From the IMG/VR virus record IMGVR_UViG_2671180524_000022: a DNA stretch of 5,076 bases. One strand, given 5' to 3'. The notes beneath the pieces were generated by a model that was not told the DNA's origin, did no database searches, and saw only the letters and a program-made list of their open reading frames with translations. The translations under genes were made by a program, and so were the position numbers. The stretch's first letter is position 1. Every line of letters starts with the position of its first letter. Of the stretch, positions 1-4,864 are shown one piece after another. The DNA is from a virus (lineage: Duplodnaviria > Heunggongvirae > Uroviricota > Caudoviricetes).

Positions 1-728
1 TCGAACAATATCCCGGTGCTTGTTCAGCTCCCGCAGCGCGGCGCAGACTCGCTCCCACTTCTGAACATCACTTTTCGCCCTGCGCAGCGCCAGGTTTGCC
101 CTGCGCAGGGACGGAAAAATCAGCTCATCTGCTTGCGTTTCGGTAAACGATGGCAACGGCTGCACAATGTCCGCCACAGTTTCTGTTTTAATTTCTTCCT
201 GTGTTGCGGCTTCCCGGACTGGTAACGCAGCACCTGCTGGCTGAGGAAAGGCCTTACCATCACTTTCCGTTACCAGCGCGGCTTTCGGCTCTGCTGGTAA
301 ATTATCGCCCGGCATGCAGTAACGAAATTTACCGTTCTGATTAACGCGTGCCAGCCGCCCCGTTGCGGTTACCACCGCCAGCGTGGAAGCAACCTTGCGA
401 GTACTGACGCCGAACTTACCCGCCAGTTCCTCACACGTTTTAGCACCATCCTGACCGATAAACTCAACCATCATGTCTGCGGTAACTTTTGGAGCGACCT
501 CTTCGGTTACCACATCCGGCGCTTCAGGTTGTAGTGCCTGCCCTTCGGTTACCCCGGCTTCACCTTCGACAGCCAGAAACCAGGTGTGACCCGTTTTATC
601 AACAACGCCATTTTTTTGAGTTCCCACAGTTCGTTAAGAACTTCTTCACGGCTGATATCAAGCCGCGCCGCCAGTTCAACAGAATTGGCTTTTCCCATCG
701 CTTTCAGTGCATGCAATACAGTTTCCAT
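1..728 (-). CDS. Uncharacterised prophage protein with two tandem winged-helix-like modules; reading frame broken at an A7 homopolymer (plus-strand T7 at 611-617); C-terminus lies beyond the window start. Possible pseudogene or homopolymer sequencing error.
   Basis: Minus-strand ATG at 728-726 with GAGG about 10 nt upstream (rc of 739-742). This frame reads [39 protein letters not shown] and stops at 551-549. A second minus frame is open from 633 to position 1 and reads ...[20 protein letters not shown]...[54 protein letters not shown].... The two frames overlap only in 552-633, which contains the homopolymer. My own translation; the ORF track does not show it because there is no stop in the window and the frame is shifted. 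Confidence 0.5.
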
Positions 729-753
729 CGAAAATTTACCTCGTCAAAAATTC

Positions 754-1494
754 TCACATACCCTGACGTCCAACGTTTGACCGCCAGCTCTCCCAGTTAA
801 AATTCACCCAACGACCACCATTCATGGTCATACGGTCCATCACCCGATCTCCGAGGAGTGTGCTCATCGCTGCGTGATTCAGGTTCGTCAGCATTCCGAC
901 ACTACGCATCGAAGCCGTTCTGCGGTCGACTATCTGGTTCAGCGTGACCTGCTCGTTGCGCGTATCCCGCTGCATGCCAATTTCATCAAGGACCAGAAGG
1001 TCAACTCCACAAAGCTCCTGTAAAAATTTTTCCCCGGACTGGCCGTTGTCGTAGCCGTCATGCAACACGCTCATGACATCGGACACGGTGACGATAATCA
1101 CGCTTCTCCCCTTCGCCATCAGCCGATTGCCAATCGCTGCTGCCAGGTGATTTTTACCGGTACCAGGTTTACCGCTGAACACGAAGTTTGTACATCCGGT
1201 CATCAATTCATCGGCAATGGATTTCGCCTGGCTCAGAGCATGGCGCTGACCGTCGTTCTGCACCCGGTAGTTCCCGAATGAGCACTTCCTGTGAAGCGGC
1301 TGGATGCCCGCACGGTTCAGGATTTTTTCAACCCGCACCTGATGATTCAGGCGGTTAATCTCCTCGCTGCGTTTTCGTCCTTCAGCAAGTTGCCATTCCC
1401 GCCACTCCTCCACCGTCCGGTACGGTGGAACCGCCCCCTGTGGTGCAAGTCTGCGAATACGTTCAAGAACCCCAACTGCCGCAATGTTTTTCAT
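754..1494 (-). CDS. dnaC: DnaC-family AAA+ helicase loader (prophage replication protein, lambda P functional analogue; Rac YdaV-like)
   Basis: 246-aa ORF. Walker A FSGKPGTGKNHLAAAIG, Walker B DLLVLDEIG, and near-colinear similarity to E. coli DnaC as I recall it (PLHxxCSFxNYRV, NQIVDRR, GMLTNxN, LGxRVMDRM). Minus-strand ATG at 1494 with GGGGG about 10 nt upstream; lies 6 nt downstream of the initiator stop. Confidence 0.93.
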   Translation of the reverse strand: MKNIAAVGVLERIRRLAPQGAVPPYRTVEEWREWQLAEGRKRSEEINRLNHQVRVEKILNRAGIQPLHRKCSFGNYRVQNDGQRHALSQAKSIADELMTGCTNFVFSGKPGTGKNHLAAAIGNRLMAKGRSVIIVTVSDVMSVLHDGYDNGQSGEKFLQELCGVDLLVLDEIGMQRDTRNEQVTLNQIVDRRTASMRSVGMLTNLNHAAMSTLLGDRVMDRMTMNGGRWVNFNWESWRSNVGRQGM

Positions 1495-2485: not shown

Positions 2486-2880
2486 TTAGTGCATCACCAC
2501 AGCATTCCCTGCCGGGCCGCCGCGATTCATCTGGTCATACAAAACAACCGCTGACGCAACAAAATCATCGACATCCTTCACCAGCCGATCCCTCCGTTCG
2601 ACGATCTCACGGTAATATTCAGAACTGTGGCTGCGCATACGGGCCACCAGCAAAGGCGGCATCGCCTTTTCGATCGCCGGTAACAGAGCCTGCATTTTTT
2701 CAACAGCATCAGGGGTGTCTTTATCCNNNNNNNNNNNNNNNNNNNNNNNNNNNNNNNNNNNNNNNNNNNNNNNNNNAGCTCGAAATACGCTTTGGTAATT
2801 TTCGCAGCCGGTACTTTTTCGCCGTCCGGATGCGCCCAGACATTCATCGCCATGCGGATGTGTTCATGCTTGATTTTCAT
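2486..2880 (-). CDS. YdaT-like protein (cII-position gene of Rac-type prophages), interrupted by the assembly gap; true length unknown
   Basis: N-terminal piece MKIKHEHIRMAMNVWAHPDGEKVPAAKITKAYFE from ATG 2880-2878, which overlaps the cro-like stop as ATGA. C-terminal piece ...DKDTPDAVEKMQALLPAIEKAMPPLLVARMRSHSSEYYREIVERRDRLVKDVDDFVASAVVLYDQMNRGGPAGNAVVMH ends with TAA at 2488-2486. The two pieces are in different frames across the 50 N, as expected for a gap of arbitrary length. The MKIKHEHI start matches my recollection of E. coli YdaT. Confidence 0.55.
2727..2776. other. Assembly gap (run of 50 N)
   Basis: 50 consecutive n characters, seen directly. Confidence 0.97.
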
Positions 2881-3179
2881 GAATCAACTCCATCAGATAA
2901 GCATGCACTACAATCACCTTCAGCATGAACTACATGTGTTTGCCCCAAACGAATGCCGCTCGCATACTCAGGCCAAATAAGCTCCCAATCATGGGGTCGT
3001 AGCTCCGCCCTACTTACTTGGCCTTCCGTCGCAGATTCGATCATAAGGGCGCGGGTTGGAGATATAGCTGTTCGTCCAGACGCCATTTGCGATAAGTAAG
3101 ATGGCGATACACCAAGTCTGGCCGCGAATTTCTTAGCATCACCAACCCTTAATGATTTAATAAACTCTTTTAATGTCAT
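2877..3179 (-). CDS. Cro-like HTH regulator, YdaS family
   Basis: 100-aa ORF. Strong SD GAGGAAGG immediately upstream of ATG 3179-3177. HTH segment AARLGVSPSYLSQMASGRTAISPTRALMIESATEGQVSRAELRP. Divergent from the repressor gene across the operator region. Stop TGA overlaps the next gene's ATG. Confidence 0.8.
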   Translation of the reverse strand: MTLKEFIKSLRVGDAKKFAARLGVSPSYLSQMASGRTAISPTRALMIESATEGQVSRAELRPHDWELIWPEYASGIRLGQTHVVHAEGDCSACLSDGVDS

Positions 3180-3185
3180 ACCTTC

Positions 3186-3272
3186 CTCGGTTTAGTGTTT
3201 TTTTGCGAGTTTAGTGTTTAATAAACCATTAAGTCAAGTATTTGCTTGTTTAGTGATTACTAAAGATAATTA
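3186..3272. promoter_or_regulatory. Divergent promoter/operator region (OR-like) between the repressor and cro-like genes
   Basis: Direct repeats GTTTAGTGTTT (3190-3200, 3209-3219) and GTTTAGTGATT (3248-3258). Palindromes GTTTAATAAAC (3216-3226) and TTTAGTGATTACTAAA (3249-3264). Plus-strand promoter candidate: -35 TTGCTT 3242-3247, 17-bp spacer, -10 GATAAT 3265-3270. Minus-strand promoter candidate: -35 TTGACT (rc of 3232-3237), 18-bp spacer, -10 TAAACT (rc of 3208-3213). Confidence 0.5.
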
Positions 3273-3276
3273 CCAC

Positions 3277-3648
3277 ATGCAAAAAAAAGAAATTCGCCGT
3301 TTACGTCTCAAGGAGTGGTTTAAAGATAAAACTCTGCCACCCAAAGAGAAGAGCTACCTATCTCAACTAATGAGTGGGAGAGCCTCGTTTGGAGAAAAGG
3401 CTGCCAGAAGAATAGAGCAAACATACGGGATGCCGGAAGGGTATCTGGATGCGGAATACGCAGAACAACCGGGGGGTTCTCCACCACATGCAGGGTTAAC
3501 GTCTAATCAACTGGAATTATTGCAGATTTTTTCAGCCTTCCCTGAGGATGAGCAACGCCAGATAATCAGCGAGTTAAAGCAGAAAAAAGAATCAATGGAA
3601 GATCTCATAGCGAGATGGATTGCGGCGCAAAAATGCCGCCGCGCCTGA
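3277..3648 (+). CDS. paaR: HTH immunity repressor at the cI position; likely also regulator of the downstream toxin-antitoxin pair (PaaR-like)
   Basis: The track ORF starts at 3214, but the ATG at 3277 (123 aa) lies just downstream of the -10 element and clear of the operator repeats. HTH segment KEKSYLSQLMSGRASFGEKAARRIEQTYGMPEGYLD. C-terminal LTSNQLELLQIFSAFPEDEQRQIISELK resembles the DicA C-terminus as I recall it. Stop TGA at 3646-3648. Gene symbol from recalled operon architecture only. Confidence 0.7.
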   Translation: MQKKEIRRLRLKEWFKDKTLPPKEKSYLSQLMSGRASFGEKAARRIEQTYGMPEGYLDAEYAEQPGGSPPHAGLTSNQLELLQIFSAFPEDEQRQIISELKQKKESMEDLIARWIAAQKCRRA

Positions 3649-3668
3649 GTTATAAAACCGGAGGAAAC

Positions 3669-3860
3669 ATGAATAGAGCCCTTTCACCAATGGTTTCTGA
3701 ATTTGAAACCATTGAACAAGAAAACAGTTACAACGAATGGCTGCGTGCGAAAGTAGCAACGAGCCTTGCAGATCCGCGCCCAGCAATTCCCCATGACGAA
3801 GTTGAGCGCAGAATGGCAGAACGCTTTGCTAAGATGCGCAAGGAACGGAGCAAGCAGTAA
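3669..3860 (+). CDS. paaA: Small antitoxin (63 aa), PaaA-like partner of a ParE toxin
   Basis: ATG 3669 with GGAGG at 3660-3664. Product MNRALSPMVSEFETIEQENSYNEWLRAKVATSLADPRPAIPHDEVERRMAERFAKMRKERSKQ is small and charged, consistent with a partly disordered antitoxin. Its stop TAA at 3858-3860 is 1 nt before the toxin ATG. Length matches my recollection of PaaA2 (63 aa). Confidence 0.75.
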   Translation: MNRALSPMVSEFETIEQENSYNEWLRAKVATSLADPRPAIPHDEVERRMAERFAKMRKERSKQ

Positions 3861-3861
3861 A

Positions 3862-4140
3862 ATGTTACCCGTGTTATGGCTTGAAAGCGCAGATACCGAC
3901 CTAGATGATATAACTAGTTATATTGCTCGTTTCGACATAGATGCGGCTGAACGCTTATGGCAGCGATTAAGGGGTTGTGTGCTGCCGTTATCCGAACATC
4001 CGTATTTATACCCACCAAGCGACAGAGTACCTGGCTTGCGTGAGATTGTAGCCCACCCTAACTATATAATTCTATACCGCGTAACAACATCAAGCGTTGA
4101 AGTAGTAAACGTGATCCACGCAAGACGCCAGTTTCCCTAA
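3862..4140 (+). CDS. parE: ParE/RelE-superfamily toxin (92 aa)
   Basis: ATG at 3862 in the same frame as track ORF 3766..4140. Product MLPVLWLESADTDLDDITSYIARFDIDAAERLWQRLRGCVLPLSEHPYLYPPSDRVPGLREIVAHPNYIILYRVTTSSVEVVNVIHARRQFP shows the typical ParE pattern (N-terminal helices, C-terminal ...ILYRV...VEVVNVIHARR). Translationally coupled to the upstream antitoxin. Confidence 0.85.
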   Translation: MLPVLWLESADTDLDDITSYIARFDIDAAERLWQRLRGCVLPLSEHPYLYPPSDRVPGLREIVAHPNYIILYRVTTSSVEVVNVIHARRQFP

Positions 4141-4157
4141 CTTTCACTACCAATAGA

Positions 4158-4205
4158 AACATAACAACCGCAACGACTTTATCAAAAGCGTTGTGTTTGT
4201 TATGT
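4158..4205 (+). terminator. Imperfect inverted repeat downstream of the toxin gene; possible terminator or protein-binding site
   Basis: Left arm aacataacaaccgcaacg (4158-4175) and right arm cgttgtgtttgttatgt (4189-4205) pair at about 15 of 17 positions around a 13-nt loop. No clean U-tract follows, so this is not a canonical intrinsic terminator. Confidence 0.25.
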
Positions 4206-4210
4206 CCCGC

Positions 4211-4255
4211 GGTTTAGTTTTTACTTGACTTAAGTTTAATGTTTATTAAACTAAA
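4211..4255 (+). promoter_or_regulatory. Second operator/promoter-like module (OL/pL-like), rightward
   Basis: GTTTAGTTTTT (4212-4222) and palindrome GTTTATTAAAC (4241-4251) resemble the OR motifs. -35 TTGACT 4225-4230, 16-bp spacer, -10 TAAACT 4247-4252. The TTGACTTAA...GTTTATTAAAC...TAAACT arrangement is shared with the minus-strand cro promoter candidate. Confidence 0.35.
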
Positions 4256-4570
4256 AATACCAACCCACCCCGCCCCACAGAACGCAGGGAAATACTTCGA
4301 GTTACCCGGCAGTGGTCAGGGGTTAAGTAGCCAGCCCGAGGCGTATGAACATGACGGCAGGGTTCAACTTTAATAACTATGCAGCAGTTTTTTGTTCCGC
4401 TACCCCGGCGTTAAGGGGAAACAGAGGGTTTCTCAGTGGGCGAAGTCAAACATCAGAATGGAAGGCATCCCGGGATCGGCAAAGAAGCAGCAATGGCGCT
4501 TTATATTGACATCAGCGCCATTGCAGGACAGGTAAGAGTTATCAGAGCGGTAACTAAGCGGTATGCGCCT

Positions 4571-4771
4571 TTACTTCAGAAAGTCTCTGGTGAGTGCACC
4601 GAAGATATTGTCAACGATTTCGTCATCGAACTGCGAGGACTCATCTTCAGTTACAAGGTGACCACAATTTTTGCAGATGGCTCCCGCGAAACTGTCAGAG
4701 CCCTGCGGCTTAAAGGATGTGTCAAAGACTTCGCCACCACATTCTGGGCAAGAAAACTTGATTGTATTCAT
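4571..4771 (-). CDS. Small zinc-ribbon protein (CxxC...CxxC), function unknown
   Basis: Minus-strand ATG at 4771-4769 (the track starts at TTG 4777) with SD GAGAGGAA 7 nt upstream. Product MNTIKFSCPECGGEVFDTSFKPQGSDSFAGAICKNCGHLVTEDESSQFDDEIVDNIFGALTRDFLK has two CxxCG pairs and an acidic tail. Few rare codons, unlike the overlapping plus-strand ORF. Confidence 0.6.
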   Translation of the reverse strand: MNTIKFSCPECGGEVFDTSFKPQGSDSFAGAICKNCGHLVTEDESSQFDDEIVDNIFGALTRDFLK

Positions 4772-4864
4772 AACCAATTTCCTCTCGAGTAACAGACCCC
4801 TCAGAGGATACCACCTCGCCTGACGTGGTTAAAAAGCAGGCAACGCTAACCACAAGGAGCCGAC

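Follow-up and report, generated by a model that had tools for sequence, protein, structure and literature searches.

The window analysed here, a stretch of 5,076 nucleotides, comes from the cryptic lambdoid prophage CP-933P (Sp12) of E. coli O157:H7, of which it forms the immunity region. Positions 2877-4300 show 100% identity to many O157:H7 chromosomes and 98.3% to phage Evi. Of the primers listed by Jurenas et al. in their Table S3 (2021, mBio 12:e02947-21, PMC8630535), the 18 that we checked all map to the window exactly and with zero mismatch. Thus primer F-1-PaaR2 falls on 3277-3304, the EMSA primers FL1 and FL2 delimit exactly 3180-3276, and the primers of the PRM fragment delimit 3204-3277. 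The distance between ydaS and paaR2 is 97 bp, matching the figure of the same authors. The PRM933P/paaR2 region that they described is indeed the same sequence, with its 97-bp intergenic region, a protein beginning with MQKKE, the operators and the PL and PRE promoters. Compared with the published CP-933P we found no difference in the paaR2 promoter region, while the window carries a masked run of 50 Ns (2727-2776) in ydaT.

Three genes of the + strand form an operon. The first, paaR2 (3277..3648), is an open reading frame for a CI-like repressor of 123 amino acids, lacking an S24 peptidase domain and translated from a leaderless mRNA. It is followed by the antitoxin gene paaA2 (3669..3860, + strand; Pfam PF21217, E-value 1e-19), which has a Shine-Dalgarno sequence of its own, GGAGGAAA, with an anti-SD dG of -9.5 kcal/mol, and by the toxin gene parE2 (3862..4140, + strand; Pfam PF05016, E-value 1.9e-16). 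On the opposite strand, ydaS (2877..3179, - strand; Pfam PF15943 and HTH_3) encodes a Cro analogue competing for the operators of PaaR2, as documented by EMSA, footprint and repression data (PMC8630535). The ydaT-like gene next to it (2880-2578, - strand) is broken by the masked run, so that the full ydaT is unreadable from the window. An O-like replication gene and a DnaC-like gene also lie on the - strand.

Some further elements of the window deserve mention. Upstream of the DnaC-like gene, an open reading frame at about 549-800 (- strand) is broken at a T-run (about 611-618); in the O157:H7 strain TR01, the annotation of its counterpart is that of a DUF1627 pseudogene with a frameshift. At 4571-4777, again on the - strand, a 68-amino acid zinc-ribbon open reading frame (CxxC...CxxC), which RefSeq labels as an ECs_2282 family putative zinc-binding protein, lies antisense to a 118-amino acid + strand open reading frame located downstream of PL. 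A scan of the window against Rfam at a permissive threshold returned just two sub-threshold chance matches (mir-4703 and the speF leader), none of them near the paaR2 promoter.

Pfam assigned no family to the repressor, and its identity as the regulator of the paaR2-paaA2-parE2 system follows from the PaaA2 and ParE matches of its neighbours together with the literature. Membership in this system is borne out by the 100% DNA identity to O157:H7 and by the presence of the PF21217 and PF05016 genes directly downstream. Residues 1-71 of PaaR2 match the PDB entries 7NKV, 8C3K and 8C3L (E-value 5e-41). The S24 autocleavage domain, PF00717, was not found in the 123 residues of the protein (0 Pfam families at E<=0.01), unlike in lambda CI, and for lack of this domain we consider PaaR2 a functional analogue of CI rather than a member of the Lambda CI/LexA-type (S24 peptidase) family. 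The protein is reported to be unresponsive to mitomycin C (PMC8630535). Its N-terminal DNA-binding domain (residues 1-60; 3277-3460) shares about 60-80% identity with the corresponding domain of many S24-peptidase repressors of 206-252 amino acids (P0061-P0120). Relatives sharing this domain at up to ~80% identity do carry PF00717, and the C-terminal half of PaaR2 is unrelated to these repressors, a pattern which suggests that a domain swap removed SOS-cleavability in PaaR2.

The promoter of the operon, PRM933P, can be read directly on the + strand. It consists of a -35 hexamer, TTGCTT (3242..3247; three of six positions identical to TTGACA, and the same hexamer in most relatives), a 17-nucleotide spacer, GTTTAGTGATTACTAAA (3248-3264), and a -10 hexamer, GATAAT (3265..3270; five of six positions), after which the six nucleotides TACCAC (3271-3276) lead to the ATG at 3277-3279. 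A first-pass annotation, made from the sequence alone, had placed each of these elements correctly, proposing that the repressor is expressed as a leaderless mRNA from a good sigma-70-like promoter. The qualifier is too generous: PRM933P agrees with the sigma-70 consensus at 8 of 12 positions, has the optimal 17-nucleotide spacer and no extended -10, and stays below the threshold of a consensus scan. Matches of its quality are not above chance in the window (8, versus 12 +/- 4 in random sequence), and one with an ATG at +6 is found in 15% of random 5-kb sequences. The hexamers of PRM933P by themselves prove nothing; what stands above chance is the operator motif and the conservation of the layout in relatives.

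No Shine-Dalgarno sequence precedes the ATG at 3277, as had been noted in the first pass: the best pairing of the 16S rRNA 3' end with positions -20 to -3 yields -0.9 kcal/mol, against -5.8 to -10.7 kcal/mol for six other genes of the window (paaA2, parE2, ydaS, ydaT, the O-like gene at its ATG and the DnaC-like gene). Nucleotides 1-35 of the paaR2 mRNA are predicted to be unpaired in both the MFE and the centroid structures, and the first 30 nucleotides are 43% A. Efficient leaderless initiation in E. coli requires a 5'-terminal AUG. The paaR2 start codon at 3277 is an ATG, as this mode of initiation needs.

Experiments published on the same sequence bear directly on this start. By 5' RACE on RNA of E. 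coli O157:H7 EDL933, the +1 of PRM933P was located on the paaR2 start codon, in agreement with the predicted position of the promoter (PMC8630535); on our coordinates this base is the A at 3277 (+ strand) with which the ATG begins, the seventh nucleotide after the -10 hexamer. With paaR2-His joined directly to the transcription start of araB, in a leaderless construct under ParaBAD, Edman sequencing of the protein returned the N-terminus MQKKE, and the intact mass agreed with expectation at 15,081 Da (PMC8630535). PaaR2 produced from the native promoter had the same size on gels as this engineered leaderless product, N-terminal sequencing having been carried out on the engineered protein only (PMC8630535). 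A fragment holding PRM933P only (3204-3277) drives GFP and responds to PaaR2 (PMC8630535). The leaderless repressor mRNA proposed in the first pass is in this way borne out by the RACE, N-terminus and mass data. Leaderless expression of paaR2 with 3277, the A of the ATG, as +1 was already published in 2021 for the same sequence and is not new.

PRM933P is embedded in operators. The spacer palindrome GTTTAGTGATTACTAAAG (3248..3265), with its core TTTAGTGATTACTAAA at 3249-3264, matches TTTAGTNNTNACTAAA on both strands with zero mismatch, so the first pass was right in locating an operator palindrome within the promoter spacer. By its position and half-site, it is probably IR1 of PMC8630535. A second, well-conserved palindrome, TTTAGTGTTTAATAAA (3210..3225), is a TTTAGTNNTNACTAAA-type match with one mismatch and overlaps the divergent promoter PR933P. 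Motif counting also located a GTTTAGT half-site on the + strand (3190..3196) with no conserved partner half, which may be one of the two degenerate repeats, IR2 or IR4, of PMC8630535. GTTTAGT is present in four copies versus 0.49 expected, and none of 200 shuffles had as many; the 97-bp intergenic region holds three of the copies and the PL promoter the fourth, all of them within the two operator regions. The published description has four 18-bp palindromes with the half-site GTTTAGTAA, one of them over PRM933P and a well-conserved one over PR933P, while in two of the four one half-site is not conserved (PMC8630535). DNase I footprints in the intergenic region extend over about 78 bp for PaaR2 and about 65 bp for YdaS and cover both PRM933P and PR933P; according to the authors, the exact binding sequences remain to be determined (PMC8630535).

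The divergent ydaS-ydaT promoter, PR933P (TTGACT-18-TAAACT, 3208..3237, - strand), was located by a promoter scan in agreement with the published 5' RACE of ydaS, and its -35 hexamer is 4 bp away from that of PRM933P. Measured with GFP fusions, PRM933P is the weaker of these two promoters and has a weak basal activity, which rises about 4-fold with basal (leaky, low) PaaR2 and falls up to 45-fold with induced PaaR2 or YdaS (PMC8630535). The third promoter, PL933P (4213..4252, + strand), has the sequence TTGACT-16-TAAACT (4225-4252) and two copies of the operator, one at 4213-4228 and the other at 4235-4250, and is repressed about 100-fold, by PaaR2 and by YdaS (PMC8630535). Its hexamers are those of PR933P (3237-3208), and it faces away from the end of parE2, toward ydfC/dicB-type genes. 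The 44 nucleotides directly downstream of PL (4257-4300) are about 95% identical in four coliphages otherwise unmatched to our query, one of which, vB_EcoM-606R7, carries them between a gene for a 214-amino acid CI-like repressor and a ydfB/ydfC/dicB operon. We found no Rfam match for this 44-nucleotide stretch, and its RNA fold is not significant (z = 0.17).

A second paaR2 transcript may come from PRE933P, an alternative promoter activated by YdaT. The published fragment maps by its primers F-PRE and R-PRE to 2852..2971 on the + strand, and contains at 2870-2887 the YdaT operator OM, TTGATTTTCATGAATCAA, a perfect copy of the published TTGATTN6AATCAA (PMC9986795). This operator sits on the junction between the ydaS stop and the ydaT start, YdaT being a CII analogue. 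PRE933P is undetectable without YdaT and has PRM-like activity when YdaT is supplied (PMC8630535). A transcript derived from it is leadered, again with no Shine-Dalgarno sequence before the paaR2 ATG.

Together, these elements lead us to a reading of the locus that we hold to be practically certain: sigma-70 polymerase starts transcription at the weak PRM933P on the A at 3277, and the paaR2-paaA2-parE2 mRNA is leaderless, with the spacer palindrome placed as OR3 is in lambda. RNA polymerase with sigma-70 uses TTGCTT-17-GATAAT in spite of its weakness and starts at the A of the ATG; with this start, the mRNA has no 5' untranslated region and its first gene has no Shine-Dalgarno sequence. The 5'-terminal AUG directs the translation of PaaR2, presumably through 70S ribosomes by analogy with lambda cI, where such initiation relies on them. 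Occupancy of the spacer palindrome would repress PRM933P, as at OR3, and activation would be exerted from a site closer to the -35 hexamer. The first pass had suggested that occupancy of the spacer operator could directly activate or repress repressor synthesis. PRM933P is indeed footprinted, activated and repressed, so this suggestion is borne out at the level of the promoter as a whole.

The parallel with lambda cI and PRM drawn in the first pass holds base for base. Lambda reads TAGATA-17-TAGATT-TAACGT-ATG and the window TTGCTT-17-GATAAT-TACCAC-ATG, an identical geometry, with a weak -35 hexamer in lambda. OR3 (102-118 of our lambda entry, L073) fills the spacer and reaches two bases into the -10 hexamer, and the 18-bp palindrome of the window (3248-3265) fills the spacer of PRM933P and the first base of its -10. 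The divergent Cro-type gene is at a distance of about 100 bp in lambda and 97 bp in the window, and the first codons are A-rich in both (AGC ACA AAA AAG AAA in lambda cI, and likewise in paaR2). PRM and PRM933P obey a common regulatory logic, where low repressor activates and high repressor or Cro represses. Among the differences, lambda has a GGTGAT about 10 nucleotides upstream of the cI ATG, whereas nothing comparable precedes the paaR2 ATG. This GGTGAT could serve the leadered PRE transcripts of lambda. The genes downstream of the repressor are the ParE/PaaA2 toxin-antitoxin pair in CP-933P as opposed to rexAB in lambda. The operators also differ in number, with four 18-bp repeats in CP-933P (PMC8630535) versus three in lambda.

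Leaderless transcripts of other prophage repressors have been observed by primer extension or RACE, for RacR of the Rac prophage of E. coli K-12 (from promoter PracR3) and for the cI gene of PY54. Like PaaR2, RacR is divergent from a ydaS-type gene, but racR has three promoters of which just one is leaderless; in the telomere phage PY54, cro is leaderless as well as cI. Both repressors are unrelated to PaaR2 in sequence and in operators.

Is the short distance between promoter and ATG peculiar to CP-933P? We scanned representative genomes and obtained 67 related loci, with 56 non-redundant upstream regions for profiling. Picking the best promoter at each locus proved too noisy and was replaced by an offset profile, complemented by an nhmmer anchor on the promoter/operator block. 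In the offset profile, the pattern TTGnnn-17-nAnnnT ends exactly 6 nucleotides before the ATG in 27 of the 56 regions, against 0-2 at every other offset from 0 to 40; requiring a -10-like hexamer alone, 36 of the 56 peak at offset 6. With nhmmer the block is found in 60 loci, and the gap from -10 to ATG is 6 nucleotides in 35 of them, 5 in two and 7 in one, figures which are circular for the 6-nucleotide loci on which the model was trained, the independent evidence coming from the offset profile and from loci that were not used for training. The gap is constant in length and free in sequence (gcgaac, gacggc, aaaggt, cgaacc, tgcccc).

The loci with this spacing encode short PaaR2-like proteins (118-135 amino acids) as well as S24-peptidase CI-type repressors (206-252 amino acids), in hosts that include Yersinia, Proteus, Erwinia, Brenneria, Pandoraea, Massilia, Undibacterium and Nitrosomonas. 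In a further two relatives, with 75% and 66% identity and each with a linked paaA2/parE pair, the sequences are GATAAT-gtatgt-ATG and GACAAT-aagaac-ATG. There are two exceptions. In Pasteurellaceae (L047, L050, L059-L063) the promoter/operator block lies 20-41 nucleotides upstream of the ATG, with a clear Shine-Dalgarno sequence in most cases (dG -6.4 to -10.7); in Photorhabdus and Xenorhabdus (L003-L010, L019) the block lies 54-85 nucleotides upstream of the repressor ATG. Judged from their upstream regions, these lineages are natural leadered variants within an otherwise leaderless family.

The same layout has left a trace in sequence databases. The entries of the two relatives with a paaA2/parE pair are 7-8 residues too long, the surplus being operator and -10 sequence read as protein (TKDN, from ACT AAA GAT AAT). 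Gene callers presumably extend the N-terminus in such cases for want of a ribosome-binding site at the true start. Over-extended repressor N-termini, in forms of 144, 150, 130 and 131 amino acids, were seen in the proteins P0001, P0002, P0004 and P0005 and in L070 (859-1251) and L071 (1501-1896).

Such extensions could also be taken to place the start of PaaR2 further upstream. The reading frame is open back to 3214, so the true start could be the in-frame codon there, or one further upstream, in which case paaR2 would encode 144 amino acids or more behind a leader and TTGCTT-17-GATAAT would be a chance match inside a coding sequence. The chance-level frequency of the promoter match and the N-terminally extended cluster representatives of a large protein collection (P0001 and P0002, with 144 and 150 amino acids) agree with this. 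The codon at 3214 is a GTG and not the ATG that the first-pass annotation had taken it for. Against a start there, this codon too lacks a Shine-Dalgarno sequence (dG -2.5), and it lies inside the PR/operator region. The start methionine at 3277 is kept in the 22 homologues that we aligned, from Photorhabdus, Xenorhabdus, Providencia, Serratia, Salmonella, Pantoea, Erwinia and others, while the N-terminal extension is not conserved, being in the relatives the translated operator and -10 just mentioned. Both PGAP and the annotation of phage Evi start the regulator at 3277. A transcription start near 3190 and an N-terminus from 3214, which the first-pass annotation had named as the findings that would speak against its proposal, are contradicted by the published RACE and protein data, since the +1 falls on the ATG and PaaR2 expressed from its native promoter is no larger than the 123-residue form (PMC8630535). 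We rejected the 144-amino acid reading from GTG 3214 on these grounds, and an upstream start in general appears extremely improbable.

One could also imagine that most PaaR2 is made from a leadered transcript, initiated inside ydaS/ydaT at the YdaT-activated PRE933P, and that the 5' end at 3277 is minor or results from processing. PRE933P does exist, and reaches PRM-like activity once YdaT is supplied. The published RACE involved TAP treatment, adapter ligation and five clones, and its methods include no TAP-minus control (PMC8630535); monophosphate, processed ends ligate in RACE too, so a processed end at 3277 is not formally excluded by this experiment, but the promoter spacing argues against it. 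The arrangement of a -10, six nucleotides and an ATG is kept across genera, which a processing site would not explain. Moreover, PRE933P activity cannot be detected unless YdaT is supplied, PaaR2 keeps ydaS-ydaT repressed in the immune state (PMC8630535), and the fragment with PRM933P only (3204-3277) suffices to drive GFP and to respond to PaaR2. A PRE933P transcript complements the leaderless PRM933P transcript, one serving establishment and the other maintenance as in lambda, and does not exclude it. We give a predominantly leadered supply of PaaR2 hardly any credence, and retain the leaderless start at 3277 as our main reading.

If anything in this analysis is new, it is the fixed 6-nucleotide spacing across the family, as read from sequence, together with the lineages that appear to have replaced it with a leader. 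On the strength of the comparison between loci, we lean towards leaderless expression being an ancestral, selected trait of the clade of prophage repressors that share the PaaR2 DNA-binding domain and the GTTTAG...ACTAA operator, and not a quirk of CP-933P. This clade of leaderless repressors may span Enterobacterales, Burkholderiales, Nitrosomonas and others; in the Pasteurellaceae and in Photorhabdus/Xenorhabdus the block would have shifted 20-85 nucleotides upstream, the Pasteurellaceae having gained a Shine-Dalgarno leader.

For the paaR2 locus itself, nothing is added here to the 2021 paper, and the case shows that an experimentally verified leaderless gene was recoverable from sequence alone in a first reading. 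The family-level pattern has some modest use in practice, since it marks out dozens of prophage repressor genes as probably leaderless and accounts for the extended N-termini given to them by gene callers that look for a ribosome-binding site. If leaderless expression is indeed ancestral in this clade, the pattern would provide a simple rule to correct over-extended repressor N-termini in databases. The leadered lineages, Pasteurellaceae and Photorhabdus/Xenorhabdus, could be used to ask what leaderless translation gives to repressor homeostasis, and the clade as a whole would then constitute a natural experiment on leaderless translation kept or abandoned.
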